Shown: piece by piece, positions 16,841-62,079 of the stretch
Numbering within the stretch: position 1 is the stretch's first letter
Layout of the letters: every line of letters begins with the position of its first letter
DNA from: Candidatus Pacearchaeota archaeon
Lineage (GTDB): Archaea > Nanobdellota > Nanobdellia > UBA10117 > JABICX01
Length of the DNA stretch: 64,000 nt
Direction of reading: 5' to 3'
Assembly: GCA_017608025.1 (NCBI GenBank)
Contig: JAFCGM010000002.1
Coordinates: 6,250 to 70,249 of the forward strand
Notes under the pieces: model-generated
Database searches by the model: none
Told to the model about the DNA's origin: nothing
Seen by the model: the letters and a program-made list of their open reading frames with translations, nothing else
Made by a program: the position numbers and the translations under genes

Positions 16841-17619
16841 TTCTTATTATTCTCCTTTTTGCTATCTTGTGTTTTTGGTTTGTTTTTTGTTTCAGGCTTT
16901 TTTGATTCTGATTCTTTAGTTTGTTTGTTTTCTTTGTTAGGGGCGGTTTCTTTTGCTACAGTCCTTCTGCTGAAGGGACCCACAGCAGTGCTATCTTCGC
17001 CTGGCTCGATATCACTTTTATTTTCTTTGTTAGGGGCGGTTTCTTTTGCTGCTTTTTTTATTTTGGACAAAATCTCCTGCTTTTTCTTTTCATCAATTTT
17101 TTTCTTCTTTTTAATATCTGCAACTTCCTTGTCTTTTTTCTTCAGCTCTTCTTGTCTCTTTTTTTTCTTTTCTGCTTTTTCTTTTTTCTGCTTCTTTCTT
17201 TTTTCATAAGACTCTTTTATTTTCCTTATTTCAGAGTCAAGGTTTCTTATGTTTGAAAATGATATTTTTTTGCTTTTTGCTTTTTCGAGAATTTCAAGGC
17301 GTTTCTTGCTTCCTATTTTTGAAGACAAAATTGCGAAATTTTTCTCTGGATTGAAGTTTTTTAAATCATTGTGATTTTCAACTCTAAAAGGAGTTTTTCC
17401 TTCTTCATTTGCATGCCTTAGAATTGAAATTGTTTTGAATCCAATTGAAACCATCTTTGGTTTTCCTCGTCTTCTAAGCCTTAATTTTGACTGAACTCCG
17501 CGAGGCTTTCTCCACTTTGTTCCAAGCCGTTTTCTCCTGTGAGATTCCTGCCTTTTGAATTCTGGCATTTTCTTTTTTATTTTTTTCTTCTGCTTGGAAA
17601 GTTCTTTTAATGATTTCAT
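16837..17619 (-). CDS. rpl32e: Ribosomal protein L32e (eL32) with ~140-aa K/E-rich C-terminal tail carrying an in-frame repeat-element insertion
   Basis: eL32 core (RRKRLGTKWRKPRG...) followed by a low-complexity tail. Tail contains ...EDSTAVGPFSRRT... flanked by an exact 30-bp duplication. Confidence 0.85.
   Translation of the reverse strand: MKSLKELSKQKKKIKKKMPEFKRQESHRRKRLGTKWRKPRGVQSKLRLRRRGKPKMVSIGFKTISILRHANEEGKTPFRVENHNDLKNFNPEKNFAILSSKIGSKKRLEILEKAKSKKISFSNIRNLDSEIRKIKESYEKRKKQKKEKAEKKKKRQEELKKKDKEVADIKKKKKIDEKKKQEILSKIKKAAKETAPNKENKSDIEPGEDSTAVGPFSRRTVAKETAPNKENKQTKESESKKPETKNKPKTQDSKKENNKK
16958..17020 (-). repeat. Family-A short element (63 bp), in frame inside the eL32 tail
   Basis: gtccttCTGCTGaagggacccaCAGCAGtgctatcttcgcctggctcgatatcac, flanked by exact 30-bp direct repeats (16928-16957 / 17021-17050). 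Confidence 0.85.
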
Positions 17620-19992: not shown

Positions 19993-20515
19993 TGTTTTTT
20001 CCTCCTTTTGAATCAGTTTTTACTGGCTTTATTGTTTTTGTTGATGATTTTTCAATTGCTTGCTTTCTTGTCCTTCCAGCGAAGGGACCCACGCTGGCGC
20101 TATCTTCGCCTTTGGCTCGATAGCTCTTAGATTGTGATGATTTTTCAATTGCTTGCTTTCTCTTCTTGTCAGATAAATCAATATCAATTATTTGAACATT
20201 TGAAGGAGATATTGGGTATTTAATTACTCGGCCTTCTTCTTTTTTGAATTCTGCTTTTCTGACAAAGATTTTGCTCTTTTTTAGAGACACTTTTTCAACT
20301 TCTCCAATCAATCCTTTGAATTGGCCTCTAAGGATTTTTACCTTGTCTTTAACTCGAATTGGAATGTTTCTTGTATTGTATTTTTTTCGCAAATCTTTTG
20401 AAAGTAAAGCAGACATAAACTTTCTTTTTACATGAAGCGGAGAATTGAATCGATATTTCCTCTGCTTTCTAGGCTGTTTGCTTGACTTCCATTTTTTAGA
20501 CCAAAGAGTTTTCAT
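19985..20515 (-). CDS. rpl24: Ribosomal protein L24 (uL24, KOW) with C-terminal tail carrying an in-frame repeat-element insertion
   Basis: KOW motif KVKILRGQFKG. Tail contains ...EDSASVGPFAGRT... flanked by an exact 27-bp duplication. Start taken at MKTLW. Confidence 0.85.
   Translation of the reverse strand: MKTLWSKKWKSSKQPRKQRKYRFNSPLHVKRKFMSALLSKDLRKKYNTRNIPIRVKDKVKILRGQFKGLIGEVEKVSLKKSKIFVRKAEFKKEEGRVIKYPISPSNVQIIDIDLSDKKRKQAIEKSSQSKSYRAKGEDSASVGPFAGRTRKQAIEKSSTKTIKPVKTDSKGGKNNE
20069..20134 (-). repeat. Family-A short element (66 bp), in frame inside the uL24 tail
   Basis: gtccttCCAGCGaagggacccaCGCTGGcgctatcttcgcctttggctcgatagc, flanked by exact 27-bp direct repeats (20042-20068 / 20135-20161). 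Confidence 0.85.
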
Positions 20516-20936: not shown

Positions 20937-21090
20937 TGTCCTTCTGCTGAAGGGACCCACAGCGGTCGTGTAAAGCTTTGCTTCACACAACGGTTTAACT
21001 CTAGTGACTGTCCTTCTGCTGAAGCCACTCATAGCAGTGCTATCTTCAGAAACAAAGTTTCCTTGATAACAGGTATTTAGCATTATAGGA
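20937..21090 (-). repeat. Two tandem family-A elements (A3a 20937-21008, A3b 21009-21090) inserted at the S17 stop / L14 start overlap
   Basis: Flanked by 26-bp direct repeats ttcattttttgtcctctgtccttctg (20921-20946 / 21091-21116) that each contain the ATGA overlap. Confidence 0.8.
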
Positions 21091-22221: not shown

Positions 22222-22303
22222 TGTCCTTCTGCTGAAGGGACCCACAGCAGCTCTACCGAGCAAAGCTCGATAGCGCGAATGGATTCCTTAGTTTTTTTCC
22301 TCC
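22222..22303 (-). repeat. Family-A full-length element (A4) occupying the whole S3-L29 junction
   Basis: Minus-sense: GGAGGaaaaaaaCTAAGGAAtccatTCGCGCTATCgagctttgctcggtagagctgctGTGGGTCCCTTCagcaGAAGGACA then ATG. Its first 16 nt encode the S3 C-terminus and stop. Confidence 0.85.
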
Positions 22304-23606: not shown

Positions 23607-23684
23607 TGTCTTTAAAGCAAAGGACTTGCGCGGGCTCTACCGAGCAAACTCGATAGCGCGAAAGTTCCTTAGTTTTTTGCCTCC
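23607..23684 (-). repeat. Family-A variant element (A5) between S19 and L22, abutting the L22 ATG
   Basis: GGAGGcaaaaaaCTAAGGAACTTTCGCGCTATCgagtttgctcggtagagcccgcgcaagtcctttgctttaaagaca then ATG. Confidence 0.75.
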
Positions 23685-23703
23685 TTTTTAAGATATTTCA
23701 TTT

Positions 23704-24965: not shown

Positions 24966-25074
24966 GTCCTTCTCGCGAAGGGACCCACTCAGCCGCAAAA
25001 TCGGCTGGCGCTTTCATCAGGCAGATGTTGGTCTGATGCCTGATAGCGCGAAAGTTCCTTAGTTTTTTGCCTCC
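24966..25074 (-). repeat. Family-A long element (A6, 109 bp) between L23 and L2, abutting the L2 ATG
   Basis: GGAGGcaaaaaaCTAAGGAACTTTCGCGCTATCaggcatcagaccaacatctgcctgatgaaagcgccagccgATTTTGcggctgagtGGGTCCCTTCgcgaGAAGGAC then ATG. Confidence 0.85.
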
Positions 25075-25099
25075 ATTATTTTTATCATTATTCTTCTCC

Positions 25100-28661: not shown

Positions 28662-28714
28662 TTTAGAAAAAGCGGCTAGGACTACATCTAAGGCGGCTAC
28701 GCCTTCTGCGGAAA
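28662..28714 (-). ncRNA. Candidate small RNA or conserved intergenic element, family D copy 1
   Basis: Near-identical 53-bp copy of 32318-32370: tttagaaaaagcggctaggactRcRtctaaggcggctacgccttctgcggaaa. Minus-sense would end in T5. Confidence 0.3.
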
Positions 28715-28889
28715 AATAGCTCTTTTTCTTTTCGAGAACATTTTCTTTTTCAAAAGAAAAGGTTCAAGCGAGCCCGGAGGGATTCGATTACCTCGGCAAA
28801 CCCTTTAAAAAAGTGTTTGCATTCCCAAATGTTTTTTTCGAGCGAAGCGAGACTTTTTAGCAACTTGCCTTTTTTTGAAAAAGGCAGAG

Positions 28890-29052
28890 CGAGCCCGGAG
28901 GGATTCGAACCCTCGATCTACAGCTAACTCCAGCACATTAAAGTCTTTTAGCTTATCTTTGCAGGCATCGCATTTTGTTTGCCTGCTCAAAGCGCCAGCC
29001 AATTTTGCGGCTGTAGGAGGCTGTCGCCCTATCCAGACTAGGCTACGGGCCC
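28890..29052 (-). tRNA. tRNA-Arg(CCT) with 88-nt intron at 37/38; the intron carries a family-A repeat module
   Basis: Acceptor GGGCCCG/CGGGCTC. Anticodon stem ACAGC/GCTGT with loop CTCCTA^A. T-arm GAGGG-TTCGAAT-CCCTC. Intron contains CAGCCG-CAAAAT-TGGCTG plus a long stem. Confidence 0.65.
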
Positions 29053-29585
29053 AGTTAAAGAAAACTGCAATATCTTAATAAAACTTGCCAATTCACTACC
29101 GAAATTCTTTAATCTATGTGTTTCTATAAAATTAACATGAAAAACAAACATAGATTAATTGCTTTCTTTTTAGTACTTGTTTTTGTAGTAAGCTTCTTGT
29201 TTTTTGGAAGGATTTTCAGCATAATAGATTCTCTTTCTGATTTAACAGGCGCGGAAATTCTAAAGACTCCAGAAGAAAAGTCAGAAGAATACTCATCTGT
29301 CTGCGAGCAGAAAGACTTTTCAAAAAATTATCGCGACTGTATTTACTGGGAACAGGAAGGGGAAAAACAAGATTCTCTTTCAAAGCTTTCAGACGAAGCA
29401 GTGGAATCTTTTTGCAAAGAGCTATTTAGAATTTACAAAACTTGCGAATAGAAACATTTTTAACTGATATTTTGGGTTTAACTCATATCAGATTTGCTCT
29501 GAGCTAACTTTCGACTGTTGAACAGCAGCGGGATGTCTTTGCCAGCGCTTTTCTGAAAAGAGATATGCATCATGATCTAATGCTC

Positions 29586-29678
29586 CTTCTCGTGAAGGGA
29601 GTTACATGCGGCTGCAAAATCAGCCGGCACTTTCATCAGGCAACAAAGTACGATGCCTGATTGTGATTCACGAACACA
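29586..29678 (-). repeat. Family-A structured repeat element (copy A7), directly 5' of tRNA-Gly
   Basis: tccttctcgtgaaggga...gcggctg-CAAAAT-cagccg...ttcacgaa. Flanked by a duplicated ~20-bp tRNA-Gly 5' segment (29565-29585 / 29680-29700). Confidence 0.7.
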
Positions 29679-32317: not shown

Positions 32318-32370
32318 TTTTTAGAAAAAGCGGCTAGGACTGCGTCTAAGGCGGCTACGCCTTCTGCGGA
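32318..32370 (-). ncRNA. Candidate small RNA or conserved element, family D copy 2
   Basis: Second copy of the family-D 53-mer, directly after the 5S terminator. Followed by the palindrome gaaacttttggaaaaagtttc also found at the tRNA-Leu 5' flank. Confidence 0.3.
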
Positions 32371-32459
32371 AACTTTTGGAAAAAGTTTCATCAAAAACAG
32401 AATCATATTTTTACATTATCTCTTTTCCATATTGATTTTAGTTAAGATTCTTTAGTGCA

Positions 32460-32540
32460 GTCCTTTTAGCTAAGAGACCCACGCTGGCGACAAACATTGG
32501 TTATGAAAAGTCGCATAAGCTCTTAAATTATTTCTTTTTC
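32460..32540 (-). repeat. Degenerate family-A element flanked by diverged ~30-bp direct repeats
   Basis: gtccttttagctaagagacccacgctggcg... between attgattttagttaagattctttagtgca and atgttaattttaactaagactctttggtgca. Confidence 0.5.
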
Positions 32541-41950: not shown

Positions 41951-42937
41951 TTAAAACGCCTGTTTATAGTCAGGAGCGTCTCTTGGCGAAAAATCAATCT
42001 CAATATCAAAAGAAAAAATAGCTTTCACCAAAATACAAATATTATAAACCAAACATTTCAAATACAATTCATTTACTTGAGATTCAAAGTTCTTAAAATA
42101 TAATTTAGCACCAAACTTACGCTTTAATGCACTGAAGCTTGCTTCTACATTAGACCTTTTGTGATAGTGCTTATAGAATTTACTTCTATTCTTACGGAAC
42201 AGTTCCAATGAAGTTTTCCAAACACCGCTTTTTCTCTTCATTCCACAATTACTTCTGAAAGGAATATATGGAACGCCACCATAATGATGAACCGTCTCTA
42301 AATTATGCCTAGAAGAATATGCTTTATCTCCTAATACTTCATCAATCTTGAAATTCTCAGCAGTTCTTGAAACTAACTTATCAAATTCAGGAGAATCATG
42401 ACATTCACCTGTAGTAATTTCAAGAGAAGTAATTACATTCGTAAAAATCCCACACATTGCATGACATTTAACAAATTTATGCCTGTCATTATATCCGACT
42501 CTTGAATCAAACCATCTCTCATAACTATTAGTTGAGAATCCAGTCGAATCAACTGCAAACCTAGTCTCCAAGTATTTCAAAGGCATAGCAGACATCATAA
42601 GTAAATAATTCAATGTTGGGGTCAAAGATTTTCTTCTCATGTAGTCCGTAACAGAAGAATGATGTGGGACTTTTTTAATATATCCCATATCTTTGAGAAA
42701 CCATAATTGAGATGTAAGTGTTCTTGAAGGCATCCCAAAATATAACTTCATAGCTAGGCAGAAGATTACATCCTTTTGATTGTGCATTGGACGACCTTTT
42801 TTCTTTATTGGTTCCGATACAGTTTCATCCAATAGATTTCTGAGGATTTCAACAAAGAGTCTACCTTCCTTAGTTTGCGCTTTATTGTAGGAAGTCCAGT
42901 CTCTATCTTTTGTGAATTCTTTAATTTTTGATTGCAT
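41951..42937 (-). mobile_element. IS5/IS4-superfamily DDE transposase gene (IS ends not resolved)
   Basis: DDE_Tnp_1-like blocks FAVDSTGF, LGDKAYSS, EASFSALKRKFG. Confidence 0.7.
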
Positions 42938-46155: not shown

Positions 46156-46860
46156 TCAAAGCTGGTTAAAGCATCTCTTGAAGTTCTTTTCGATCTGTTC
46201 CTCAACATCTTCTGGGGAGAACTTCTTTATTCTGGCAATCTCCCTAATTACTTTTTTTATGCTTGTTTTTGGGTTGTCTGTTATATACGGGAAATCTGTT
46301 TCTGTTAAGATTCGCGAAAGAGGAACTATTTCAACTAGCTTCTTAACTTCTGGATACTTGAAGATGAAAGTGTTGATTGAAAAGTAGAATTTAGACTTTA
46401 TGTCTTCAATTAATTCTGGGTTTCCTGTGTATGAATGAATTACTGCCTTTCCATTATAATTTTTAAGCATTTTTGCAACTACTCCTTCTGCCTGCCTGCA
46501 GTGTATAATCACTGGCTTGTTTATCTGCTTTGCAAGCTTCAGAATTTCGCTGAAGTATTTTTTGTGCACAGGCCTTTCTGTTTTTGATGAATATTTATAG
46601 TCAAGCCCTACTTCGCCGACTGCGACTATTTTGTTTTTTTTATTTTTTATTTCTTCAAACTCGGCATAAATTTCCTTTTCAAGATATTCGGAAAATCTTG
46701 TTGGATGGAAACCGATTGCTGCAAAAACATTTTCATATTTTTCAGAAAATTTTAGAACTTCTTTATTTGACTCTGGGTCAAGACCGTTTACTATTACAGG
46801 AATGTTCTTGTATTTTTTAAAATCTTTTTCTTTTGCATGTGAATGTGCGTCGTATAGCAT
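46156..46860 (-). CDS. tatD: TatD-family deoxyribonuclease/hydrolase
   Basis: MLYDAHSHA..., HCRQAEG, VIHSYTG and TETDFPYI TatD motifs. The upstream extension in the ORF track is repeat-derived. Confidence 0.8.
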   Translation of the reverse strand: MLYDAHSHAKEKDFKKYKNIPVIVNGLDPESNKEVLKFSEKYENVFAAIGFHPTRFSEYLEKEIYAEFEEIKNKKNKIVAVGEVGLDYKYSSKTERPVHKKYFSEILKLAKQINKPVIIHCRQAEGVVAKMLKNYNGKAVIHSYTGNPELIEDIKSKFYFSINTFIFKYPEVKKLVEIVPLSRILTETDFPYITDNPKTSIKKVIREIARIKKFSPEDVEEQIEKNFKRCFNQL

Positions 46861-46914
46861 TACACAATAACCTCGATTATTACTCTTATTAATGAGTAAT
46901 GTATGTACCAGTCC

Positions 46915-46980
46915 TTCTAGCCAAGGGACACAAGCTGGTCGTGTACAGCAGAGCTGCACACAACTTAAACCTTAATCTCA
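46915..46980 (-). repeat. Family-A short element (66 bp) flanked by 39-bp direct repeats
   Basis: ttctagccaagggacacaagctggtcgtgtacagcagagctgcacacaac... between attattactcttRttaatgagtaatgtatgtaccagtcc copies at 46876 and 46981. Confidence 0.7.
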
Positions 46981-47019
46981 ATTATTACTCTTGTTAATGA
47001 GTAATGTATGTACCAGTCC

Positions 47020-47078
47020 GTTTCGCCCGGACTGTGCGAAAGCGCATTGCTTCGCAATGCACTATACTTTTATTTCAG
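47020..47078. repeat. Family-C structured element (copy 1), nested next to the family-A copy
   Basis: gtccg-tttcgcc-cggac hairpin plus gcgcattgc-ttc-gcaatgcac hairpin. 96 bp between flanking repeat copies. Confidence 0.65.
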
Positions 47079-47832
47079 TTATTACTCTTGTTAATGAATG
47101 ATGTACATACCATTCAAACTCATTTATTACATTATATTTTGATAGGTCTAATTTAAGGGTTTTGGGTCGAATGAAAATTATCTTGTGATTTTTCTTCACG
47201 ATTTTATGTGCTTCTTCTAAAAAAGAGTTGTAAAGAGTTTTTATTTTTTTGCCGGCGAGAGTCGAGCTTTTTCCATATGGAGGATCGCAAACAATTGCTT
47301 CAATTTTATCAGAGAACAATGAAGATATGTTTGTAGCATCTCCAATAATCACCTGCCAATCTTTTCCTTCCCTTATGTTATATTTATCAGAATAAAATCT
47401 AAGATTGGTTTTGGAAGCTTGTGCAGCTTTCCATTTAATATCTATTCCTATTCCTTTAATTCCAAGAATAGCACTTTCCAAAATAATAGAACCTGTTCCG
47501 CAAAAGGGATCTACAATTTGATTCTTAGCTTCAGACAAGTTAATTAAAAGACGGGCAAGCTTTGGTTTTAGTGCTGTTGGATGAAATGCTGGCTTTTTCT
47601 GAGGTTCTCGGTCCAGAAACTGACCAGATTTTCTTTCCCATATGCAATAATCATTTAAGTAAGCTTTTTTTATTCCTGCGCTTTTTACACACAAATCAAT
47701 TATTTTCTTAGAAGGAATTTTTTTGCTGAAAAATACATAATTTTCTTTTAATTTAGAATTAACATTAAAAAGGATATCAACCTCCCGCTTAAATGCGGAC
47801 AGGTTTTCTCCAGAAATTCTCAGCTTAATCAT
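47062..47832 (-). CDS. tRNA (guanine-N2)-methyltransferase, Trm11/Trm-G10-like
   Basis: DPFCGTGS (motif I) and DPPYG (motif IV). Confidence 0.6.
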   Translation of the reverse strand: MIKLRISGENLSAFKREVDILFNVNSKLKENYVFFSKKIPSKKIIDLCVKSAGIKKAYLNDYCIWERKSGQFLDREPQKKPAFHPTALKPKLARLLINLSEAKNQIVDPFCGTGSIILESAILGIKGIGIDIKWKAAQASKTNLRFYSDKYNIREGKDWQVIIGDATNISSLFSDKIEAIVCDPPYGKSSTLAGKKIKTLYNSFLEEAHKIVKKNHKIIFIRPKTLKLDLSKYNVINEFEWYVHHSLTRVITEIKV

Positions 47833-48044
47833 TTATTTTCTTTTCTTTAAGAGCATCTTTTCGATTTTCTTGTCAAGTGAAATACCTTTTTCTACAAGGT
47901 GCTCAATTTTGCTGTCCATTTTGGAAAGTTTTCTATCCATAAGGACAATGTATCTAAGGCTCCACACTATTCCAAGAAGTAATCCTAAAATTGCTCCATT
48001 TAAAATTAGGTCACCAACACCAATAGCCATAATTTACCTCCAGA

Positions 48045-48440
48045 TTATTCTGCTTCCTCTTCCAAAGACTCTTTTTCCTTTTCTCTGTAAACAGAAGCAA
48101 AAGATGGAGTTGCTACTAAAAAATTCTCTCCAAATCCTGCGATGTCTCCGTCATTTGCTTCCAGAGTCTTCTTTAGCTTTTCAATTGCCCTTTTCAAAGC
48201 AAGTCTATCTTTCTCTCTCAGAGGAGCAATATTTATCAAAGCAATTGTATATCCTTCACGTATTGCATGAATTATATCTTTGACATCTTCAAATTTTTCA
48301 AGTTTGAAAGGTCGTACGTTTATTTTTGCTTTGGATTGTTTAACATTAGCCTCAAGCTCAACATATTCATCGCCAAGCTCTATCTCTTTGTCTTTCTTGA
48401 AAAGACTTGAAATATTTCCAAAAATCTTTGATTTATCCAT
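48045..48440 (-). CDS. sepF: Cell-division protein SepF homologue
   Basis: ...DVKDIIHAIREGYTIALINIAPLREKDRLALKRAIEKL...GDIAGFGENFLVATP SepF/DUF552 pattern. Confidence 0.6.
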   Translation of the reverse strand: MDKSKIFGNISSLFKKDKEIELGDEYVELEANVKQSKAKINVRPFKLEKFEDVKDIIHAIREGYTIALINIAPLREKDRLALKRAIEKLKKTLEANDGDIAGFGENFLVATPSFASVYREKEKESLEEEAE

Positions 48441-48506
48441 CTAAATCACCTTTAACTAATTGTTTAATGATTTTGTTTTAATAAAAGGTTTTTGCTTGCT
48501 GAGTAA

Positions 48507-48761
48507 TTATTTATTCAAGTCCTCAAGCAAGAAGGCTAAATTGTAAATTTGAGTTCTGACCAGGGGCGACAAGTTTGGGTCCTGGCTTAATTCATCTGTT
48601 TTCTGAATTGCAGAATCAATCTTTACACCAAGCTCAATTTCTTCATTGTCAAAAGAAGCTTTTATTATCTTAAGGCTTTCCTTTACGTTTCGAGGGACTG
48701 AGCAGTCTTCACATAACTCGTTTATTAGTTCCAGCACTTCTGAGATGTCTGCATCATCCAT
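48507..48761 (-). CDS. Small acidic hypothetical protein (UPF0147-like)
   Basis: 84 aa, alpha-helical. Confidence 0.3.
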   Translation of the reverse strand: MDDADISEVLELINELCEDCSVPRNVKESLKIIKASFDNEEIELGVKIDSAIQKTDELSQDPNLSPLVRTQIYNLAFLLEDLNK

Positions 48762-48770
48762 TTTAACTCC

Positions 48771-49130
48771 TTATTTTAGAGACTTCATTAGTTCTGCTTG
48801 TATTTTTTCAAGCTCCTCTTTTGTGGAATTCTCTTCTTTTTCAATATTTTTTATTCTAGAATCTAATTCATCTTTTCTATGATTTAACTCTTTCTGAATT
48901 TCATCGCGTGTTCTTTTAAGCATTAGCTGACCAGAAATCTTGTAAACAGTTTTGTCAGAAGGTCGAAGCTCATTTAAAGCATTTTCAATTTCAAGTTTTT
49001 CTGTTTGAATTTCCTGAATTTGCGAAGAAAGTGTTTGCATCTTTTGCTGAAGAACTTGAAGCTGCATGAATTTATGCTGCAATTCCTGTTGCTTTTTTTC
49101 ATCTTTTTTCTGCTCTTTTTGTTTTGCCAT
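48771..49130 (-). CDS. pfdB: Prefoldin beta subunit
   Basis: Coiled-coil/beta-hairpin/coiled-coil layout. Q-rich heptads. Confidence 0.65.
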   Translation of the reverse strand: MAKQKEQKKDEKKQQELQHKFMQLQVLQQKMQTLSSQIQEIQTEKLEIENALNELRPSDKTVYKISGQLMLKRTRDEIQKELNHRKDELDSRIKNIEKEENSTKEELEKIQAELMKSLK

Positions 49131-49368
49131 TTTTATTTATCTCTTTCCATATCTTTTCAACAATGGAAATTTGAGTAGTTATGGAAGACATTACTGCCCG
49201 AAAAGCAGTAGCGTCTTTAGCTTTGACATTTATTGTCACTGAGTTTCCAAGCTTTTTCAAAGTGTATTTTGCTCGGGAAGTTTTGAAATCCTTTTCTGGC
49301 TCGAGAATCTGTCGTATGCCTTTGATAAGCTCAGAGCTATCTTTTATTTTTATTTTGGCTTCAAACAT
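49099..49368 (-). CDS. Pcc1-like KEOPS subunit (tentative)
   Basis: ~85-aa alpha/beta protein ...VKAKDATAFRAVMSSI... Sits at the position commonly next to pfdB. Confidence 0.4.
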   Translation of the reverse strand: MFEAKIKIKDSSELIKGIRQILEPEKDFKTSRAKYTLKKLGNSVTINVKAKDATAFRAVMSSITTQISIVEKIWKEINKNGKTKRAEKR

Positions 49369-49374
49369 TATTAT

Positions 49375-49512
49375 TTAACGTGCCTTAACTTTTTTAAGCA
49401 CTGGCGGTCTAGATTTTACAAGTATTCTTGAACCGCAATATGGACAAATAATTCTTCTTCTAATGCTTTTGGGATCAATTTCTTTTCCGCACTCAAAACA
49501 TTTATATGCCAT
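49375..49512 (-). CDS. rpoP: DNA-directed RNA polymerase subunit P (Rpb12), 45 aa, missed by the ORF track (<60 aa)
   Basis: Minus-strand translation MAYKCFECGKEIDPKSIRRRIICPYCGSRILVKSRPPVLKKVKAR*, a C4 zinc ribbon. Confidence 0.8.
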   Translation of the reverse strand: MAYKCFECGKEIDPKSIRRRIICPYCGSRILVKSRPPVLKKVKAR

Positions 49513-49526
49513 TTTAACTTTGAATA

Positions 49527-49748
49527 TTAAACCTTAATTTCAGGAGAATATGCTTTTGCTGCGAATTTTGAATTACAGCTTTTGCAATACCAAATTCCTG
49601 CTGAAATTCTTTTTACAGACTTTTTAAAGCAAAAAGGGCATTTCTGCTTTTTCTTTAGAATAGATTCTATTTTCAAAACTCGTTTTTTTATTCCAAAACC
49701 ATATCTTGCGCCAAATCTTCCCGTAGAACCTAAAGTTTTAAGAGCCAT
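49527..49748 (-). CDS. rpl37ae: Ribosomal protein L37ae (eL43)
   Basis: GRFGARYG...CPFC...CKSC zinc ribbon. Confidence 0.9.
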   Translation of the reverse strand: MALKTLGSTGRFGARYGFGIKKRVLKIESILKKKQKCPFCFKKSVKRISAGIWYCKSCNSKFAAKAYSPEIKV

Positions 49749-49873
49749 TTTTTCTCCTTATTTTCAATTACTTTTAAAGAGTATTTAAAAGCTTTTCTCT
49801 CCCTTTTCTTTAGAAAAGAAAAGGTAAGTTTCCAAAAGAAAACAATTTTAACTCTTACCAATAATTTATTTCC

Positions 49874-50566
49874 ATGAAAACTTTGTTTGTTCCTGTTTAT
49901 TCAGAAAAAGAAATTTCAGATTTGCTGGAAAAATCTTTGAAAAAACTGAAAAGCAATAAATCTGTAGCAATATTCACAACAATCCAGCACATAAAAAAAT
50001 TGAAAGAAGCTGAAGAATTTTACAAAAAAAATGGGTTTAATACTGAAGTTTTGAAATCCATTAAAAAATCTAGCCAGGGAATAAAAGCAAAAGAAAAAGG
50101 CCTGGTTCTTGGGTGTGATGCAAGCGGAGCAGGAAAAGCAAAATCAGAAATTATTATTTACATTGGATCTGGAAACTTTCATCCAGCAGGAATTTTTCTT
50201 AATTCTGGAAAAAAAGTTCTGCAATTAAATCCTGAAACAAAAGAAATTGGATTTTTTGATGAAAAGGAAATTCAGAAATTCCTTGCAAAAAAAGCAGCAA
50301 GAATGCAAAAACTAAAAGATGCAAAAAAAGTCGGAATTTGGATATCAACCAAACCCGGCCAGTTCAATGAAAATCTGGCAAGACAAATTAAAAAAAAGCT
50401 TGAAAAGCAGGAAAAGAAAGTTTTTGTTTTTGTCTCTGATATGTTATCTGCTGAAGAAATGCTAAATTTTCGGGATATTGAAGTATGGGTAAATACTGCG
50501 TGTCCGAGGATTGTTGAGGATCAAGAAAAGTTTCCAAAAACGATTGTAAATGCTGAAGAGATATAA
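49874..50566 (+). CDS. dph2: Diphthamide synthesis protein Dph2-like (short form)
   Basis: Three-subdomain repeats with conserved Cys (LVLGCDASG, NTACPR). Confidence 0.6.
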   Translation: MKTLFVPVYSEKEISDLLEKSLKKLKSNKSVAIFTTIQHIKKLKEAEEFYKKNGFNTEVLKSIKKSSQGIKAKEKGLVLGCDASGAGKAKSEIIIYIGSGNFHPAGIFLNSGKKVLQLNPETKEIGFFDEKEIQKFLAKKAARMQKLKDAKKVGIWISTKPGQFNENLARQIKKKLEKQEKKVFVFVSDMLSAEEMLNFRDIEVWVNTACPRIVEDQEKFPKTIVNAEEI

Positions 50567-50606
50567 TCGCAATACTTATAAACCCATTAAAACAAGAAAT
50601 AGTAAA

Positions 50607-50864
50607 ATGGCATTTAACCCTGTTGTTGAAGAGTTATCTAAGAATGAACTTAAAGTTATTTTCAAGAACATTGACAATGGATTCTGCAATCTTTTAAAAA
50701 AGAAACTGTGGTCTTACAAAGAAACAACTTCAACAGGTTTTCGAGTTACTCATTCTGAAGTTGGTGTTGTTGAATTTTTTCTAAAAACAAAAGGAAAAGA
50801 TGCAAAAAAAGTCTGGAACCAGGCAATCTCTGACCTTTCAAAAGATTTTTCAAAAATTAAATGA
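50607..50864 (+). CDS. rpoL: DNA-directed RNA polymerase subunit L (Rpb11)
   Basis: ...KVIFKNIDNGFCNLLKKKL...GFRVTHSEVG...LKTKG... RpoL pattern. Start taken at MAFNPV. Confidence 0.7.
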   Translation: MAFNPVVEELSKNELKVIFKNIDNGFCNLLKKKLWSYKETTSTGFRVTHSEVGVVEFFLKTKGKDAKKVWNQAISDLSKDFSKIK

Positions 50865-51415
50865 AACTTTCTGAAAAGCAAAAAAAAGAAATTCTAACTG
50901 TTGCAAGAAAAGTAATAGCTTCTGAATTCAAGAAAAATGAGAGTCTCGAAATTTCTTCTTCACTAAGAGAAGTTATTTCAAAGATTGGTGGAATTTATGT
51001 TACATTGAAAAAAAATAACAAACTCCGAGGAAGAAGCGGAAGTGCTGAACAGGAAATTTTAGGAAAGTCTCTTATTGAGCATTCAAAGAAAGCTGCTTTT
51101 GAAGACCAAAGATTCAATCCAGTTCAAAAGGACGAACTTGATGAAATTAAAATTGAGCTTGTAATAATTTCAGAACTTGAAGCTGTTTCTGGAGAAGATG
51201 CTGTTGAAAAAATCAATATTGGTAAAACTGGAATTATATTAAAAAGTGGTGCTTATTCTTCTGTTATTTTACCAAATGAAGCAAAAGAAAAAAATTGGGA
51301 CAAGAAAGAGCTTCTTGAACAGGCCTGCATAAAAGCTGGTTTGCTTCCAGATGCTTGGCTAGATGTTACAACCACAATATATTTATTTCATGGAGAAGTA
51401 ATTTCAGAAGAATGA
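50861..51415 (+). CDS. AMMECR1-domain protein
   Basis: Full-length AMMECR1 fold (...GGIYVTLKK...LRGRSGS...CIKAGL...). Confidence 0.8.
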   Translation: MKLSEKQKKEILTVARKVIASEFKKNESLEISSSLREVISKIGGIYVTLKKNNKLRGRSGSAEQEILGKSLIEHSKKAAFEDQRFNPVQKDELDEIKIELVIISELEAVSGEDAVEKINIGKTGIILKSGAYSSVILPNEAKEKNWDKKELLEQACIKAGLLPDAWLDVTTTIYLFHGEVISEE

Positions 51416-51999
51416 AGCTTAGCACGGAAATAGGTTCTGAAAAAATAAAGAGCATTCTGAAGAGAATTTGGAAATTTCTTATTTATGACCAGTCAATATG
51501 GTCTTATCTTGCTGATGCTGTAATTATAATTATAGTGGGAAAATTTATTATTCTTCCTGTTCTTGGTCTCTTTTTAGGTACTCCGTTACCTGTTGTTGGC
51601 GTGACAAGCTCTTCAATGGACCATTATGGAAAAGATTTTGATTCTTGGTGGGAAGAAAATCGAGATTGGTACTTAGAAAGAAACATAAACAAAGAGGAAT
51701 TTGAGAATTTTGATTTTAACAATGGTTTTAAAAAAGGCTCTGGGCTAGTTTTAGTTGGGGTAGATAAAAAAGAACTATGTGTTGGTGATGTTATTGTTTT
51801 TTCGTCTCCAAAAGGCCCAATAATTCATCGCATTATTTCAAAAGAACCGCTGCAAACAAAAGGGGATGCAAATTCTGGGCAATTGGCTTTTGAAAAGGAA
51901 ATTTCAGAAGAAAGAATTGAAGGAAAGGCTGTTGTTTGGATTCCATTGGTTGGATGGCCAACAGCAATTGTTGAAGATATTAAAGGAATTGCAAAATGA
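51409..51999 (+). CDS. Signal peptidase I (archaeal Sec11-type)
   Basis: TM anchor, catalytic Ser box VVGVTSSSM, GDVIVF, HRII, KGDANSG. Confidence 0.75.
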   Translation, partial: RMKLSTEIGSEKIKSILKRIWKFLIYDQSIWSYLADAVIIIIVGKFIILPVLGLFLGTPLPVVGVTSSSMDHYGKDFDSWWEENRDWYLERNINKEEFENFDFNNGFKKGSGLVLVGVDKKELCVGDVIVFSSPKGPIIHRIISKEPLQTKGDANSGQLAFEKEISEERIEGKAVVWIPLVGWPTAIVEDIKGIAK

Positions 52000-52328
52000 A
52001 ATCTGGAAAAAAAATTGCAAAAGAAAGAATTAACATTCTTTTTCGAGAAGCTGAAAAAATTTTTAATGAAAATCCTGCTCTTTCAAAAAGATATGTTTTT
52101 ATTGCAAGAAAAATCGCTATGAAAAGCAATATAAAACTAAGTTCTGAGCAGAAAAGAAAAGTATGCAAAAAGTGCAGGGCTTTTCTTTTTCCTGGAAAAA
52201 ACTGTATTGTTCGAACAAATTCAAAAACAAAATCTGTTGAATATCTTTGCAAGGATTGTGGAAATAAAAATCGATACGGATATTCTAAAGAAAAAAGTTC
52301 TTTGAGAAGGCGCTCGCTGAAAGAATAA
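51996..52328 (+). CDS. rnp4: RNase P protein subunit Rpp21 (Rpr2)
   Basis: CKKCRAFLFPGKNCIVR...CKDCG zinc ribbon with a basic N-terminus. Confidence 0.8.
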   Translation: MKSGKKIAKERINILFREAEKIFNENPALSKRYVFIARKIAMKSNIKLSSEQKRKVCKKCRAFLFPGKNCIVRTNSKTKSVEYLCKDCGNKNRYGYSKEKSSLRRRSLKE

Positions 52329-52505
52329 CTTTAAATCTGCTGGCTTTTCTTTTAGAAAAAGAAAACCTAAGTTGCCAAAAGAAAACTAATTAATTCTGAA
52401 AGAATAACTTTAAATCTGCTGGCTTTTCTTTTAGAAAAAGAAAACCTAAGTTGCCAAAAGAAAACTAATTAATTCTGAAAGAATAACTTTAAATCTAGTG
52501 AGTGT
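52316..52505. repeat. 85-bp direct repeat x2.2 that begins inside the Rpp21 stop region; each unit contains a family-E element
   Basis: gaaagaataactttaaatctgctggcttttcttttagaaaaagaaaacctaagttgccaaaagaaaactaattaattct x2, plus a third 20-bp partial. Confidence 0.85.
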
Positions 52506-52517
52506 TTAAAATATTTA

Positions 52518-52787
52518 ATGAAAAGAGAATTAATTCCGGCAATTCAAATTGGCTTGACTTTAGCTATTTTTTGGAGTTTAGTTTTCTTTTTTTCAACAAT
52601 CCTACATATACTTACTGGATATCCTGGTGCTGGATTCCTAAATGTTTTCAAAAGCATATATCTTGGTTACAACATATCCTGGGGCGGTGCAGTTGTTGGT
52701 CTAATTTGGGCTTTTATTGACGGCTTCTTGGTTGGATACATTTTTGTAAGAATTTATGAAATAATTGGAAAAAAGATAAATCCTTAA
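52518..52787 (+). CDS. Small membrane protein
   Basis: Three TM helices. Confidence 0.35.
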   Translation: MKRELIPAIQIGLTLAIFWSLVFFFSTILHILTGYPGAGFLNVFKSIYLGYNISWGGAVVGLIWAFIDGFLVGYIFVRIYEIIGKKINP

Positions 52788-52805
52788 AAACTTCAAAGCA
52801 GAGCT

Positions 52806-52862
52806 GTCCGTCTCGCCCGGACTGTGCGGAAGCGCACATACGCTAACGCGTAGTGCACTGTA
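52806..52862. repeat. Family-C structured element (copy 2)
   Basis: gtccgtctcgcccggactgtgcggaagcgcacatacgctaacgcgtagtgcactgta. Same hairpin positions as copy 1, with compensatory changes. Confidence 0.65.
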
Positions 52863-53546
52863 TTATAAGTAGTGTTTTTCTTGATTGGAAGAAGAATAAG
52901 CTATTTCTCCGAATTCGCAATACTGGCAGGTTGCGTCCATGGAAATCCAATTCTGAGTTTCCTTGTACTTCGCTCTTGCTTCTGGAATTTCTGCTTGGAC
53001 ATAAACATGGCCTGGAACAAAAACCAATCGCGTTCTAATTCCAATTGCTTCAAGAAGAGTTGAAAGAAGTACTGATGCGTCGTCGCAATCTCCACCCTGA
53101 TTTACAAGAGACTCTTTTGCTGTTTTTATGTATTCAAATGCTTTTGGATCTGAGATATAATTAAAATTCTGCTTTACAAAGTAAAAGATTGCTTTTGCCT
53201 GGCAAGTTTTGCTTCCTGATGGGCAATTTGATTCTGACACAATTCTGTCTGCAATTCCTTTTATCTCTGAATCCACAATAATATATTCTTTGTAATTTGA
53301 GGAATTAATTCTTGAGTATTTCATATTTGAATAAACAACATCCTTGATTTTAGGAATGTTTTGCGGGGACGGGTCAAGAGGGATTATGTAATATGAAACA
53401 AGAGACACTAAAAAAACAAAAATTAGGAATCCTGCAATAATGTATTTGAATCCAGATTTCTTAAATTTTGTCCAAGTATCTTCTATTTCATCTTCTGCAT
53501 CTTCAGCAAAATCCTCAATATCCTCCCAGAAATTGTCTTTTTTCAT
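52863..53546 (-). CDS. Transglutaminase-like cysteine-protease-fold membrane protein
   Basis: GGDCDDASVLLSTLLEAIGI...GH Cys-His core. N-terminal TM helix. Confidence 0.65.
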   Translation of the reverse strand: MKKDNFWEDIEDFAEDAEDEIEDTWTKFKKSGFKYIIAGFLIFVFLVSLVSYYIIPLDPSPQNIPKIKDVVYSNMKYSRINSSNYKEYIIVDSEIKGIADRIVSESNCPSGSKTCQAKAIFYFVKQNFNYISDPKAFEYIKTAKESLVNQGGDCDDASVLLSTLLEAIGIRTRLVFVPGHVYVQAEIPEARAKYKETQNWISMDATCQYCEFGEIAYSSSNQEKHYL

Positions 53547-54278: not shown

Positions 54279-54395
54279 CTGTCCTTCTGCTGAAGCCATC
54301 CACAGAGCCCTTTTGGAAAAAGCGCTCGCGGAAAACGGCAAATGCGGTCGTGTAAAGCTTTGCTTCACACACGGTTTAATTCTGGTTTTAGTCCT
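54279..54395 (-). repeat. Family-A element (copy A9) filling the thrS-PLD intergenic region
   Basis: ctgtccttctgctgaagccatccacag...gcggtcgtgtaaagctttgcttcacacacgg... The gtgtaaagc/gcttcacac hairpin is shared with A3a. Confidence 0.7.
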
Positions 54396-56119: not shown

Positions 56120-56193
56120 TGTCCTTCTAGTGACGGGACCCACGCTGGCTTTACTGAACAAGCTTGATAGCGCGAAAGTTCCTTATGTCCTCC
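56120..56193 (-). repeat. Family-A element (copy A8), forming the thrS 5' leader
   Basis: Minus-sense: GGAGGacataaggaacTTTCGCGCTATCaagcttgttcagtaaagccagcGTGGGTCCCgtcactaGAAGGACA then ATG. A TTTATA box abuts its 5' end at 56194-56200. Confidence 0.75.
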
Positions 56194-56364
56194 TATAAAT
56201 TGTTTAGAAATACGGCTATTTAAATTATTCTCCGTTGCCCTCAATAAAATTAATGGGCGACAAAAGCGCCAGCTGATTTCGCGGCTGTGTGGGGCACTCA
56301 CCGTTAATAGCCATAAAATTCTTTATTGAAGAAGATTTAAAAGGTTTGTTGTAAAAAGCAGATT

Positions 56365-60149: not shown

Positions 60150-61604
60150 TTAACCTTTTACAACAACAAAAGGAATTAATCGAGCTACTTTTTTCGCAAT
60201 TCCTGTTTCATGCATAACTTTTATTACTTCCTCAACATCCTTGTACGCTTGCGGTGCTTCCTCAAGCAGTCCTTTTTTGTCGTGGCTGAGTACAATTATG
60301 TTTTTGGATTTCAACTCTGCTGTTAATGACTGGGAGTTTATTTTTCTTTTTGCTGCGTTGCGAGAGAGAATGCGGCCAGCTCCGTGGCATGCTGAGCCAA
60401 ATGTTTCATCCATTGCTTTTTGAGTTCCCTTAAGAATGTAAGAAGCAGTTCCCATTGTTCCTCCAATTAAAACAGGTTGTCCGATTTCTCTGTATTTTTC
60501 TGGAATTTCAGTTCTGCCCGGTCCAAAAGCGCGAGTTGAGCCTTTTCGATGGACAAGAATTTTTTTGGTTTTTCCATTTATAGTGTGCTCTTCAATTTTG
60601 GCAGTGTTGTGCGCAACTTCATAAAGAGTTTTTATTTTTTCAGGCTTTAAATTGAAAGCTTGTGCAAGAGTTTTGCGTGCAAGATGAGCAATAACCTGCC
60701 GGTTTGCAAATGCGCAATTTATTCCGGCCTTAACTGCAGAGAAATACTTTTTCCCTTCTGGAGAATTTATTGGAGCACAAACCAACTCCTTGTCTGGAAT
60801 TTTGATTTTGTATTTTCTAACTGCTTTTGCAAGGTCTTTTGTGTAATCCATTCCAATTTGATGCCCCAGGGCTCGGGAGCCGCAGTGAAAAGAAATTAGC
60901 ACCTGATTTTCCTTAATTCCATAGGCTTGTGCTGCTTTTTTATCAAAAATTTTATCAACCACTTGCAGTTCAATATAGTGATTTCCAGAACCAAGAGTTC
61001 CTGTTTGGGAAAACTGGCGCTGCTTTGCTCGCTGGGAAACTGCTTTTGGGTCTGCTCCTGAGATTTTGCCGTTTTCCTCAATAAATTCAAGGTCTTGTTT
61101 TATTCCATAACCTTTTTTTATTGCAAATTCAGCACCTTCAACAAGAAGATTATCAATTTCATTTAAAGAAAGCTTAATTTTTCCTCCAACACCCAAGCCT
61201 GCAGGAATATTGTCATAAAGCAGTTTGGCAATTTCCTTTTCTCGGCCATTAAAATCAGATTTTTTAAGAGGTGTTGCCATTGTGCGAACGCCGCAATTTA
61301 TGTCAAAACCAATGCCACCCATTACAATTACGCCTTTTTCCAAGTCAAATGCTGCTACTCCGCCAATTGGAAATCCATAACCCACATGAATATCTGGATT
61401 TGCAATTACTGGCTTTTCAACTCCAGGCAGTTTTGCTATGTTCTTTAATTGCTGAAGAGAGTTCCATTCTGAATTTTCACTATTTAGCAAGCTCTTGATT
61501 TTCCTGCTAGCGTAAATCCTAGCTGGAACTGCCATTTTCTCTTCCTGGAACTCCCAGACATGTTTTCTTATTTGTTTCATCTTTCCACATCTTTGGTTTT
61601 TCAT
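60150..61604 (-). CDS. rtcB: RNA-splicing ligase RtcB (tRNA ligase)
   Basis: GYGFPIGGVAAFD, DINCGVR, HCGSRALGH, HNTAK and GTM motifs. Confidence 0.9.
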   Translation of the reverse strand: MKNQRCGKMKQIRKHVWEFQEEKMAVPARIYASRKIKSLLNSENSEWNSLQQLKNIAKLPGVEKPVIANPDIHVGYGFPIGGVAAFDLEKGVIVMGGIGFDINCGVRTMATPLKKSDFNGREKEIAKLLYDNIPAGLGVGGKIKLSLNEIDNLLVEGAEFAIKKGYGIKQDLEFIEENGKISGADPKAVSQRAKQRQFSQTGTLGSGNHYIELQVVDKIFDKKAAQAYGIKENQVLISFHCGSRALGHQIGMDYTKDLAKAVRKYKIKIPDKELVCAPINSPEGKKYFSAVKAGINCAFANRQVIAHLARKTLAQAFNLKPEKIKTLYEVAHNTAKIEEHTINGKTKKILVHRKGSTRAFGPGRTEIPEKYREIGQPVLIGGTMGTASYILKGTQKAMDETFGSACHGAGRILSRNAAKRKINSQSLTAELKSKNIIVLSHDKKGLLEEAPQAYKDVEEVIKVMHETGIAKKVARLIPFVVVKG

Positions 61605-61671
61605 CTCTTCTCACATAATTGTCAAGTGACAGCGAGATGTTTTTTTGCTAGTTTTTTCTGAAAAAAAGCTG

Positions 61672-62079
61672 TTATACATCAACAATTGTTCTTGCAATAA
61701 ATTTGTTTGCTTTTTTAATTACACTAAGCTGCGAATATGTTGCTGCTTTTACTTCGGTTTTTAGTTCTGTTTTTTTTGAGATTTTTTCGCCATATGCAGT
61801 TGCATGCAGTTTGCTTTTTTCTATTCTGACTTTGAATTTTGAAAACATTATTCTTTTCAAAGAAGACAAAGAAAGGAGTTCATTTAAAAATTCAACAAAA
61901 AGCTCTTCAGTGTTTTCTGCTGAAACAGAAAAAGAAACCTGATTTTTTAGTTTTACTTTTGAAATATCTACCATAATTTCAAACATTGCCTTTGCTGCTT
62001 CTTCAAATGCTGTTGAAAGAGTTGAACCTGTTCCTTGTATTCCAATATCTGCCAGATGCTCAAAATGCTTATATGCCAT
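61672..62079 (-). CDS. Archease (RtcB activator)
   Basis: MAYKHFEHLADIGIQG... archease N-terminus. Confidence 0.85.
   Translation of the reverse strand: MAYKHFEHLADIGIQGTGSTLSTAFEEAAKAMFEIMVDISKVKLKNQVSFSVSAENTEELFVEFLNELLSLSSLKRIMFSKFKVRIEKSKLHATAYGEKISKKTELKTEVKAATYSQLSVIKKANKFIARTIVDV

Follow-up and report, generated by a model that had tools for sequence, protein, structure and literature searches.

The Family C hairpins of a Woesearchaeota genome as probable members of a small, non-autonomous mobile element family

What kind of element is a GC-rich pair of hairpins whose core occurs only twice in 64 kb of AT-rich archaeal DNA, once in a convergent spacer and once at the end of a gene? 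The question is raised by positions 6,250 to 70,249 of contig JAFCGM010000002.1 (Candidatus Pacearchaeota archaeon), a stretch of 64,000 nt that is called the window here and whose proteins find their best matches in Woesearchaeota and Nanoarchaeota. The GC content of the window is 33%, so that GC-rich islands such as these are conspicuous. A first-pass annotation had described positions 52806-52862 as the second copy of a structured element, Family C, with compensatory hairpin changes between its two copies. Family C belongs, with a probability of roughly 70%, to a non-autonomous mobile element specific to this lineage, of which it is a sub-family with divergent sequence and which has proliferated in the present Woesearchaeota (DPANN) genome and in its closest relatives. 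The wider element family is lineage-restricted, multi-copy and insertion-polymorphic, with a conserved single-strand structure and variable target duplications, and it is best read as a small non-autonomous interspersed repeat of undescribed type.

The two copies are real. Their 31-nt core, GTCCGTYTCGCCCGGACTGTGCGRAAGCGCA, occurs exactly twice in the window (47016-47046 and 52806-52836), was also recovered as a repeat family, and finds no match in 100 dinucleotide-preserving shuffles even when three mismatches are tolerated. Copy 2 starts 3 nt past the TAA stop (52863-52865) of a transglutaminase-like gene (52863-53546, minus strand; Transglut_core, Pfam E = 5e-11) and is flanked on the other side by an 89-aa hydrophobic open reading frame (ORF; 52518-52787, plus strand). 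Its assignment to a convergent spacer between a membrane protein and the transglutaminase-like gene is thus borne out by ORFs and Pfam. Copy 1 had been placed at the right location but with the wrong limits (47020-47078), as the conserved part runs from 47016 to 47063; it takes its initial two bases, AG, from the TAG stop codon of a tRNA methyltransferase gene (Trm-G10-like, 47062-47832, minus strand). A covariance model built from Family C only (R2), and therefore trained on both copies, returns these two as its only matches in the window (80.3 bits, E = 8e-17 for copy 2; 70.1 bits, E = 2e-14 for copy 1).

The comparison between the hairpins holds in outline and needs amendment in detail. The 5-bp stems of the first hairpin, GTCCG/CGGAC, are the same in both copies, but the intervening 7-nt loop, included in the claim of identity, differs at one base (T/C). 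The second hairpin does keep its pairing with a different sequence: the same outer pairs enclose a replaced interior, which comprises three further apical pairs and a 3-nt loop in copy 1; in copy 2 it has five pairs with one bulged base, closed by a loop of 4 nt. The latter loop is 'taac', one c having been dropped from the 'taa' first given. Although pairing is preserved, the change that had been called compensatory is the replacement of a whole segment, with a change of length, and not a series of isolated double substitutions.

The strand on which the copies had been read does not survive closer inspection. In a set of nine hairpins (the two C copies, three hairpins of the same type from relatives and four from the A-type sub-family described below), all 14 G.U pairs fall on the sense strand, which is the minus strand in the window, and none on the antisense strand. 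The sense fold of the hairpin is better in 9/9 cases, by 3.5-8 kcal/mol. The third pair is U.G in 8/8 hairpins with a full basal stem, and five of the seven basal pairs (1, 2, 5, 6 and 7) covary among the nine. On the minus strand copies 1 and 2 fold at -26.4 and -27.4 kcal/mol (z = -4.45 and -3.34; 0/200 shuffles as good), compared with -21.2 and -22.2 kcal/mol (z = -3.76 and -1.19) on the plus strand, where the U.G pair of their long hairpin becomes a C.A mismatch. Summed over whole elements, the minimum free energy is -293.8 sense versus -255.5 antisense. Since the wobble pairs of the hairpin are confined to one strand, it is probably as a single-stranded molecule, RNA in all likelihood, that the fold acts.

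In minus-strand orientation the element is made up of a hairpin X (AGUGCA...UGCGCU, 10-12 bp), a 6-nt segment S1a (UUYCGC), an ACA linker and the hairpin S2 (GUCCG/GGCGARA/CGGAC), with which it ends. The 5-bp/7-nt hairpin that had been called the first makes up just half of this 3' module, as its loop pairs with 6 nt upstream: S1a is complementary to the loop at 6/6 positions in copy 1 (UUUCGC/GCGAAA) and at 5/6 in copy 2 (loop GCGAGA). Because S1b occupies the entire S2 loop, S1 and S2 form a strained, compact pseudoknot or alternative states. Both helices, in the order S1a-S2a-S1b-S2b, are supported by pairing; that both form at once is sterically doubtful. The module would accordingly be either an H-type pseudoknot or a two-state switch between mutually exclusive hairpins; by nearest-neighbour energies the preferred helix is S1 for most A-type copies but S2 for the C-type. 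Elements measure about 45-60 nt, with long forms of up to 95 nt. Their 3' end is precise (...AAGGAC in the A-type, ...CGGAC in the C-type, GGAA or GGAG in two variants), and there are no terminal inverted repeats, as the 5' ends (RKUG... hairpin) and the 3' ends are not inverted copies of each other.

GC-rich islands in AT-rich archaeal genomes are often RNA genes, and the folds here are significant, with pairing preserved. The first-pass annotation implicitly read the copies in this way, as an independent small non-coding RNA gene with two paralogues. That reading is very improbable. Copy 1 overlaps a stop codon and sits between duplicated gene ends, orthologous sites are empty or occupied by another member of the family, the two copies have no recognisable promoter context upstream in common, and no more copies turned up in the scanned collections. 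Rfam returns no match on either C copy at gathering thresholds, nor at E ≤ 10 over 46800-52900. Specific RNA identities fared no better. A tRNA-like, T-arm or anticodon-arm reading of the 5-bp/7-nt hairpin was rejected on a loop without U54-U55 or U33 and an empty ARAGORN search, and hepatitis delta virus (HDV)-like, pistol and hatchet topologies on an unfitting helix order and the lack of an Rfam match. A kink turn (K-turn) was considered for the GCUAUC-GA-GCC...GGC-GAA-GAUAGC hairpins, in which GGCGAAGA presumably matches the bulged strand of Kt-7, and was rejected by hand: the non-canonical helix would contain one Watson-Crick pair, against six in the plain register.

The context of copy 1, overlooked at first, reveals the marks of insertion. 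On the minus strand the methyltransferase gene end (...EFE) is followed by a direct repeat (DR1), the C element, DR2, the A-type element E6 and DR3, that is, by a DR-element-DR-element-DR array containing three copies of the last 51 nt of the gene (Table 1). In the corresponding loci of relatives L004-L007 (77% and 72% protein identity) the methyltransferase and TatD genes are element-free and lie 6 nt apart or overlap by 4 nt. The superficial likeness of 46860-47112 to a CRISPR mini-array is deceptive, as its 'repeats' are gene ends including the stop codon and its 'spacers' are two members of the element family.

The gene end next to copy 2 tells a similar story across relatives. In L017 (80% protein identity) an A-type element follows the stop codon and is itself followed by a 47-49-nt duplicate of the gene end; in L021-L023 (66%) a different A-type element is followed by a 62-nt duplicate; in L018-L020 (70%) the site is empty and the convergent transglutaminase and membrane-protein genes overlap by 4 nt. 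The same gene end has therefore been hit independently, by a C-type element in the window and by A-type elements in L017 and L021. L018 carries two additional elements, one flanked by a 29-nt repeat and the other by a repeat of about 20 nt. Readthrough of the stop codon into the duplicated gene end was checked by hand and discarded, since the frame does not continue in L021. The elements, in short, are insertions whose orthologous sites are empty in relatives, and neither the target duplications nor these empty sites had been noticed in the first-pass annotation. As a separate observation, the 9-10 nt that follow copy 2 (52806-52797, AGCUCUGCU) match the hairpin apex of E6 (46945-46955, minus strand, GCAGCUCUGCUG), which may be what is left of an adjacent element or a coincidence with a chance of roughly 1%.

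Nor does Family C stand alone as a family of two copies. Its architecture of a hairpin followed by a 3' module is that of the abundant A-type, in which a variable hairpin is followed, on the minus strand, by a 6-nt S1a, a 3-nt linker, GUCCCUU, a 6-nt S1b and AAGGAC-3'. When the window was scanned for GC islands and GUCC..GGAC cores, this layout appeared at many places, in each case on the minus strand. The covariance-model search that had been suggested was made with a model of the 28-nt A-type core (R1). It finds 10 cores in the window at E ≤ 0.015 (16961, 20070, 20938, 21010, 22223, 24966, 32460, 46911, 54281 and 56121) and five in three related Woesearchaeota assemblies; that only two copies exist holds for the strict C-type core and not for the element family. 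Long or degenerate forms add to the R1 cores at 29583-29677, 23612-23700 and 56252-56312 (plus strand). Besides Family C the window holds at least 12 more copies, a density of about one insertion of ~50 nt per 4 kb. Relatives at 66-80% protein identity have only a few copies, and a 52%-identity relative has no element in 16 kb.

The relationship between the two types was examined in a structural alignment of 13 C and A cores, which was made by hand, with pair counts obtained by script. S1 is paired at 87%, compared with 54% when partners are shuffled (0/5000 reach 87%) and 30-38% when partners are slid, and four of its positions show three to four pair types each. S2 is conserved; where it varies, the change is compensatory, from G-C to C-G in E10 and from U-A to G-C in Family C. 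In relatives, C-type hairpins are found on A-type cores, namely L021e2 (AGUGCAUUCAGC-UUU-GCUGACAUGCGCU) and L018e2 (GUUGCAUUACGC-GAA-GCGUACGUGCGAC), and the site in L021 equivalent to that of E9 holds an element with a C-type hairpin. When R2 was run over 49 kb of relatives' loci, its top three matches, weak as they are (E = 0.4-2.3), all fell on elements found by R1. Family C belongs to the A-type element family by architecture, by the shared hairpin and by shared insertion behaviour, not by significant similarity of the core.

In the ribosomal-protein operon, elements occupy the L23/L2, S19/L22, S3/L29 and S17/L14 junctions. In relative L014 the same junctions are 0-2 nt long or overlapping, except for a 62-nt AT-rich S19/L22 spacer, and the 18.9 kb of L014 examined are free of GC islands. 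Two further elements lie within coding sequence. L32e (16837-17619, minus strand) and L24 (19985-20560, minus strand) each contain an in-frame insertion of exactly 93 nt, made up of an element and a repeat of 29 nt (L32e) or 26 nt (L24), by which about 31 residues are gained in lysine- and glutamate-rich C-terminal tails. The products read AKETAPNKENK-[20 aa]-AKETAPNKENK and RKQAIEKSS-[22 aa]-RKQAIEKSS, respectively, and both motifs are single-copy in L014. Among the L24 homologues listed as matches, the window's own excluded, 119/119 measure 124-165 aa, versus 191 aa here.

A search for flanking repeats gave lengths of 20, 31, 36, 51, 49, 62-70 and 29-35 nt. At least eight copies are flanked by duplications of 17-62 nt of target, usually the last codons of a gene with its stop, and in every case the repeat starts 0-2 nt after ...GGAC. 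The tandem E3 and E3b are flanked by a 17-20-nt duplication across an ATGA stop/start overlap, and only about 2 nt are duplicated around E4 at the TAATG junction of S3 and L29. Where a duplication spans the stop codon or the stop/start overlap, both neighbouring genes remain intact, and surviving insertions would therefore accumulate at the ends of genes, which in this genome adjoin or overlap one another. The 5' ends are less orderly. E3b is truncated, lacking the 5' half of the hairpin, and three copies carry a piece of S3 on their 5' side, including at least 24 nt on the S19/L22 copy (23672-23700) and 21 nt on the L23/L2 copy E5 (25054-25075). The carried stretch is the 3' coding end of S3 with its stop and is orthologous to the end of S3 in L014; the S3/L29 copy would thus be the donor, its upstream flank having travelled along, and E4 is the likely source of the S3-flanked copies, judging from these sequences. 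One S3-derived flank happens to form a mini-ORF, MKYLKKEAKN* (23672-23700 or 25054-25075, minus strand).

The positions of these elements could also be explained by a function for the host, in which case each would be a cis-acting RNA (a stabiliser in a 3'-untranslated or intercistronic region, a terminator or a translational coupler) that is locally selected and not actively mobile. Elements lie exactly at gene boundaries, mostly in sense to the abutting gene (16-17 copies, against three that are antisense or unlinked: 29583, 32460 and L018e1), and compensatory change maintains the structure on the transcribed strand. In several copies the purine-rich AAGGA at the end lies 0-12 nt ahead of a start codon, a distal helix joins both ends of the insert in E5 and E10, and a T-run lies about 20 nt past copy 2. 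Close relatives, however, have the same operons and overlapping genes and no element, so that no locus needs one. Furthermore, two copies lie within coding sequence, no T-run follows copy 1, three copies are antisense or unlinked to genes, and a regulatory origin leaves both the 17-62-nt duplications and the carried S3 flank unexplained. The cis-acting reading is improbable for these reasons, and a host-level role such as mRNA stabilisation or the spacing of ribosome-binding site and start codon would be secondary to mobility.

Orientation raises a different possibility. No fewer than 15/16 window copies lie on one strand, two of them in plus-strand gene neighbourhoods, as might be expected of a single-stranded-DNA element derived from repetitive extragenic palindromes (REPs) and their REP-associated tyrosine transposases (RAYTs), or from the insertion sequence (IS) group IS200/IS605 (palindrome-associated transposable elements, PATEs), whose Y1/HUH enzymes recognise hairpins and insert into the lagging-strand template. 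REPs are common at gene 3' ends and in convergent spacers. The elements are imperfect palindromes without terminal inverted repeats and with one conserved terminus (5'-GTCC on the plus strand), and their folds beat shuffles under DNA parameters too. But this chemistry makes no target duplication, and at least eight copies have one of 17-62 nt. The two elements of L021, 3 kb apart, are in opposite orientation and each is sense to its own gene; insertions share no target tetranucleotide on their 5' side (GAA|TGG, TTC|GGA, TAT|TGC, AAA|GCA and others); and no Y1/HUH gene was found in the window (30 ORFs scanned). An origin of this kind is somewhat less credible even than a cis-acting RNA.

The equal length of the L24 and L32e insertions, exactly 93 nt, invites a last alternative, bulge-helix-bulge (BHB) introns that have moved out of tRNA genes to mRNAs and spacers and that the archaeal splicing endonuclease excises from the RNA. 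The window contains three intron-bearing tRNAs, RtcB and archease, and the intron of tRNA-Arg(CCU) has two hairpin modules of the long-form elements. Yet when h-B-H-B-h' motifs (3-nt bulges, 4-bp central helix, flanking helices) were sought, L32e had none, and at none of six loci did a motif allow consistent excision of the element, alone or with one repeat; most copies are intergenic, where splicing would be purposeless, and the modules of the tRNA intron are antisense and without the 3' core. BHB introns are the least credible of the explanations considered here.

A few observations on the tRNA genes stand apart from this argument. The tRNA-Arg(CCU) gene (28890-29052, minus strand) has an intron of about 90 nt with the modules CAGGCATC..GCCTG and GCGCCAGCCRATTTTGCGGCTG in antisense, both of which recur in the long forms at 24966-25075, 29583-29677 and 56252-56312 (plus strand). 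Its T-arm and 3' acceptor strand have a ~30-nt duplicate about 95 nt downstream (28758-28807, minus strand), with a short insert between. An intron-bearing tRNA-Gln-like gene at ~1027-1158 (minus strand; AGCCCCAUAGUGUAGCGGCC...GGUUCAAAUCCGGAUGGGGCUA, intron ~56 nt) was missed by ARAGORN and falls below the Rfam gathering threshold. The genes for the RNA ligase RtcB and archease are adjacent (60150-62079, minus strand), the expected machinery of tRNA-splicing ligation, in keeping with the many intron-bearing tRNAs. Another GC-rich motif, AAGCGGCTAGGACTRCRTCTAAGGCGGCTACGCCTTCTGCGGAA, occurs twice on the plus strand, near tRNA-Arg (28670-28713) and just after the 5S rRNA gene (32329-32372), and a fragment of it, CCGCGGAAACTTTTAG, follows tRNA-Leu at ~5045.

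Returning to a mobile element as the most probable identity of Family C, several observations weigh against it. R1 run on the window detects neither C copy, and R2 matches only its training copies there; Family C is thus sequence-divergent in its core. Pattern scans of genome, metagenome and viral collections yielded no further strict C-type core, only chance matches in bacteria of 54-73% GC and in one phage (the A-type core pattern was likewise absent from viral contigs). With two strict cores that the A-type model does not detect, the C/A link rests on architecture, hairpin and insertion behaviour. The flanking-repeat search detects no target duplication around copy 2, and at the methyltransferase locus the duplications of the C element and E6 have identical limits, unlike what staggered cuts at random positions would predict. 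An AT-rich insert elsewhere in the window has the same DR-insert layout, so that the duplicating process may be the host's and not the element's. S1 wobble is mixed, with four G.U pairs sense versus eight antisense. Finally, the 30 ORFs scanned in the 64-kb window include neither a reverse transcriptase nor an HUH enzyme or integrase, and a link to its transposase was rejected, as the ends of that transposon are unrelated, AT-rich and share nothing with the elements.

Two of these features merit a description of their own. The AT-rich insert belongs to a perfect DR22-X57-DR22-X57-DR22 array (52317-52496, plus strand) that begins at the final codons of the gene for RNase P Rpr2, and its 57 nt are about 85% identical to 49795-49850, upstream of a diphthamide-synthesis gene. 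The transposase, the sole one in the window, is of the IS4/IS5 DDE type (DDE_Tnp_1, E = 4e-22; 41951-42937, minus strand) and has AT-rich flanks.

How might such an element move? Target-primed reverse transcription of an RNA copy, in the manner of short interspersed nuclear elements (SINEs), is a tentative first choice. It is favoured by a 3' end that is fixed and structured, occurring together with 5' ends that are ragged or transduced, with duplications of variable length and with wobble pairs in the sense strand. Replication template switching is a less probable route, for which the DR layout of the AT-rich insert at 52317-52496 and the identical repeat boundaries at the methyltransferase locus speak. 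A single-stranded-DNA, HUH-type enzyme comes a little behind, favoured by the one-strand bias in the window and contradicted by the duplications, and other routes account for the rest. In its most far-reaching form, which is doubtful at present, the proposal would make these the first SINE-like retroelements of Archaea, ~50-nt RNAs copied by a reverse transcriptase encoded elsewhere in the genome. The element RNA would be co-transcribed with the host operon, and its 3' hairpin-pseudoknot would be recognised by the enzyme, which would copy it into nicked DNA and leave duplications of 2-62 nt. Long duplications would let the elements colonise a genome of overlapping genes without killing the host, and Family C would represent a sub-family with a re-tuned 3' recognition module.

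Table 1. Elements, element parts and target repeats in the window (positions are those of the window; elements are described on the strand given).
Feature	Coordinates	Strand	Remarks
Family C copy 2	52806-52859	-	54 nt; AGUGCACUACGCGUUAGCGUAUGUGCGCU-UCCGC-ACA-GUCCG-GGCGAGA-CGGAC
Hairpin X of copy 2	52831-52859	-	Basal 7 bp AGUGCAC/GUGCGCU with U.G at pair 3; bulged U on 3' strand; 5-bp apical UACGC/GCGUA; loop GUUA
3' module of copy 2	52806-52831	-	S1a UUCCGC (52826-52831), linker ACA, S2 hairpin GUCCG/GGCGAGA/CGGAC (52806-52822)
Family C copy 1	47016-47063	-	48 nt; AGUGCAUUGCGAAGCAAUGCGCU-UUCGC-ACA-GUCCG-GGCGAAA-CGGAC
DR1	47062-47112	-	Functional last 51 nt of methyltransferase gene, WYVHHSLTRVITEIKV*; directly 5' of copy 1
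DR2	46965-47015	-	Duplicate of last 51 nt, WYIHYSLTRVIIEIKV*; first base right after ...CGGAC of copy 1
DR3	46860-46910	-	Third 51-nt copy, WYIHYSLIRVIIEVIV*; keeps ancestral TAATG overlap with TatD start (46860)
E6, A-type sibling	46911-46964	-	GUUGUGUGCAGC-UCU-GCUGUACACGAC + CCAGCU-UGU-GUCCCUU-GGCUAG-AAGGAC; R1 41.4 bits
E1, A-type	16961-17015	-	In frame within L32e; 29-nt duplication 17021-17049 and 16928-16956
E2, A-type	20070-20126	-	In frame within L24; 26-nt duplication 20135-20160 and 20042-20067
E3 and E3b, tandem A-type	20938-21050	-	S17/L14 junction; E3 20938-20991, E3b core 21010-21037
E4, A-type	22223-22279	-	Inserted at S3/L29 TAATG junction
Degenerate copy	23612-23700	-	S19/L22 spacer; 5' flank of at least 24 nt from S3
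E5, long form	24966-25075	-	L23/L2 spacer; S1 (UUUCGCG...CGCGAGA) closes two inserted hairpins
E10, long-form variant	29583-29677	-	S2 CUCC..GGAG, compensatory at terminal pair; distal S1 UUCGUG/CACGAG
A-type core	32460-32487	-	Spacer after 5S rRNA gene; no abutting minus-strand gene
A-type	54281-54372	-	Spacer between threonyl-tRNA synthetase (ThrRS) and PLD genes; hairpin nearly identical to that of E3
E9, A-type	56121-56179	-	Ends 1 nt ahead of ThrRS start codon

The genomes of DPANN archaea, commonly called streamlined, are some of the smallest and most densely packed that cells possess, yet this window is rich in insertions. Selfish insertions reach even the conserved ribosomal-protein operon, including the inside of two ribosomal proteins, and their long, variable duplications suggest a route by which a parasite enters gene junctions that overlap by 1-4 nt with neither gene inactivated. 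The duplications also point to a chemistry of insertion that fits none of the usual classes in prokaryotes (DDE, HUH, tyrosine or serine recombinases). Should the RNA route prove true, retrotransposition of the type known from SINEs and long interspersed nuclear elements (LINEs) would extend to Archaea. On the practical side, the elements are a hazard to annotation through spurious ORF extensions, duplicated gene ends and CRISPR-like arrays, and their presence or absence provides fine-scale markers for strain-level population genomics of Woesearchaeota.

A literature search found no description of such elements, and several known systems resemble them in part. Rickettsia palindromic elements (RPEs) are bacterial, reportedly 100-150 bp long and found in frame in protein genes. 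Like the present family, they are small non-autonomous hairpin repeats that multiply in a reduced genome, in genes as well as spacers, and whose in-frame peptide segments are tolerated; unlike here, long variable target duplications and a pseudoknot-like 3' module are not reported for them, and no sequence relationship is expected. The mobile GC clusters of yeast mitochondria include 'byp' elements, which are said to be skipped by the ribosome. They too are GC-rich hairpin insertions spreading through an AT-rich compact genome, coding sequence included, but they are eukaryotic and organellar, and both intragenic copies described here open in frame, with no sign of bypassing.

Among prokaryotic repeats, REPs and bacterial interspersed mosaic elements (BIMEs), which are linked to RAYT transposases (PMC2817692, PMC3733652), are likewise imperfect palindromes, short and GC-rich, that occupy the ends of genes and convergent spacers. 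The likeness extends to high copy number, to a terminal tetranucleotide that is conserved and to the stabilisation of mRNA as a possible side effect. REPs are extragenic, produce no duplication, often form inverted pairs and are served by a RAYT gene, in contrast to the long duplications, intragenic copies (L24, L32e), single orientation and lack of a RAYT in this window. MITEs (miniature inverted-repeat transposable elements) of prokaryotes (PMC10969869) carry inverted repeats at their termini and make a short duplication, the parent DDE transposase determining its constant length. They are similarly short, non-autonomous, multi-copy and insertion-polymorphic between close relatives. The elements described here have no terminal inverted repeats matching a parent IS, and their duplications vary in length, with 17-20, 26-31, 29-36, 29-35, 47-49, 51 and 62 nt, besides the roughly 2 nt between S3 and L29. 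They differ from IS200/IS605-derived PATEs in that no fixed tetra- or pentanucleotide lies 5' of the insertion and duplications are present.

A functional parallel is found in SINEs and other RNAs mobilised in trans by reverse transcriptases of non-LTR retrotransposons, although we know of no such element in archaea. The resemblance concerns how the element may work, not its identity. The present elements are far smaller (~50 nt), have neither an A-rich or simple-repeat tail nor an internal promoter, and are accompanied by no reverse transcriptase in the window. What they share with SINEs is a structured, precise 3' end, a ragged, truncated or transduced 5' end, duplications of about 2-62 nt, termini that lack inverted repeats and the need for an enzyme that the element itself does not encode. 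Indeed, variable duplications with a precise 3' junction, 5' truncation (E3b) and 5' transduction (the S3 flank) are all observed in this window.

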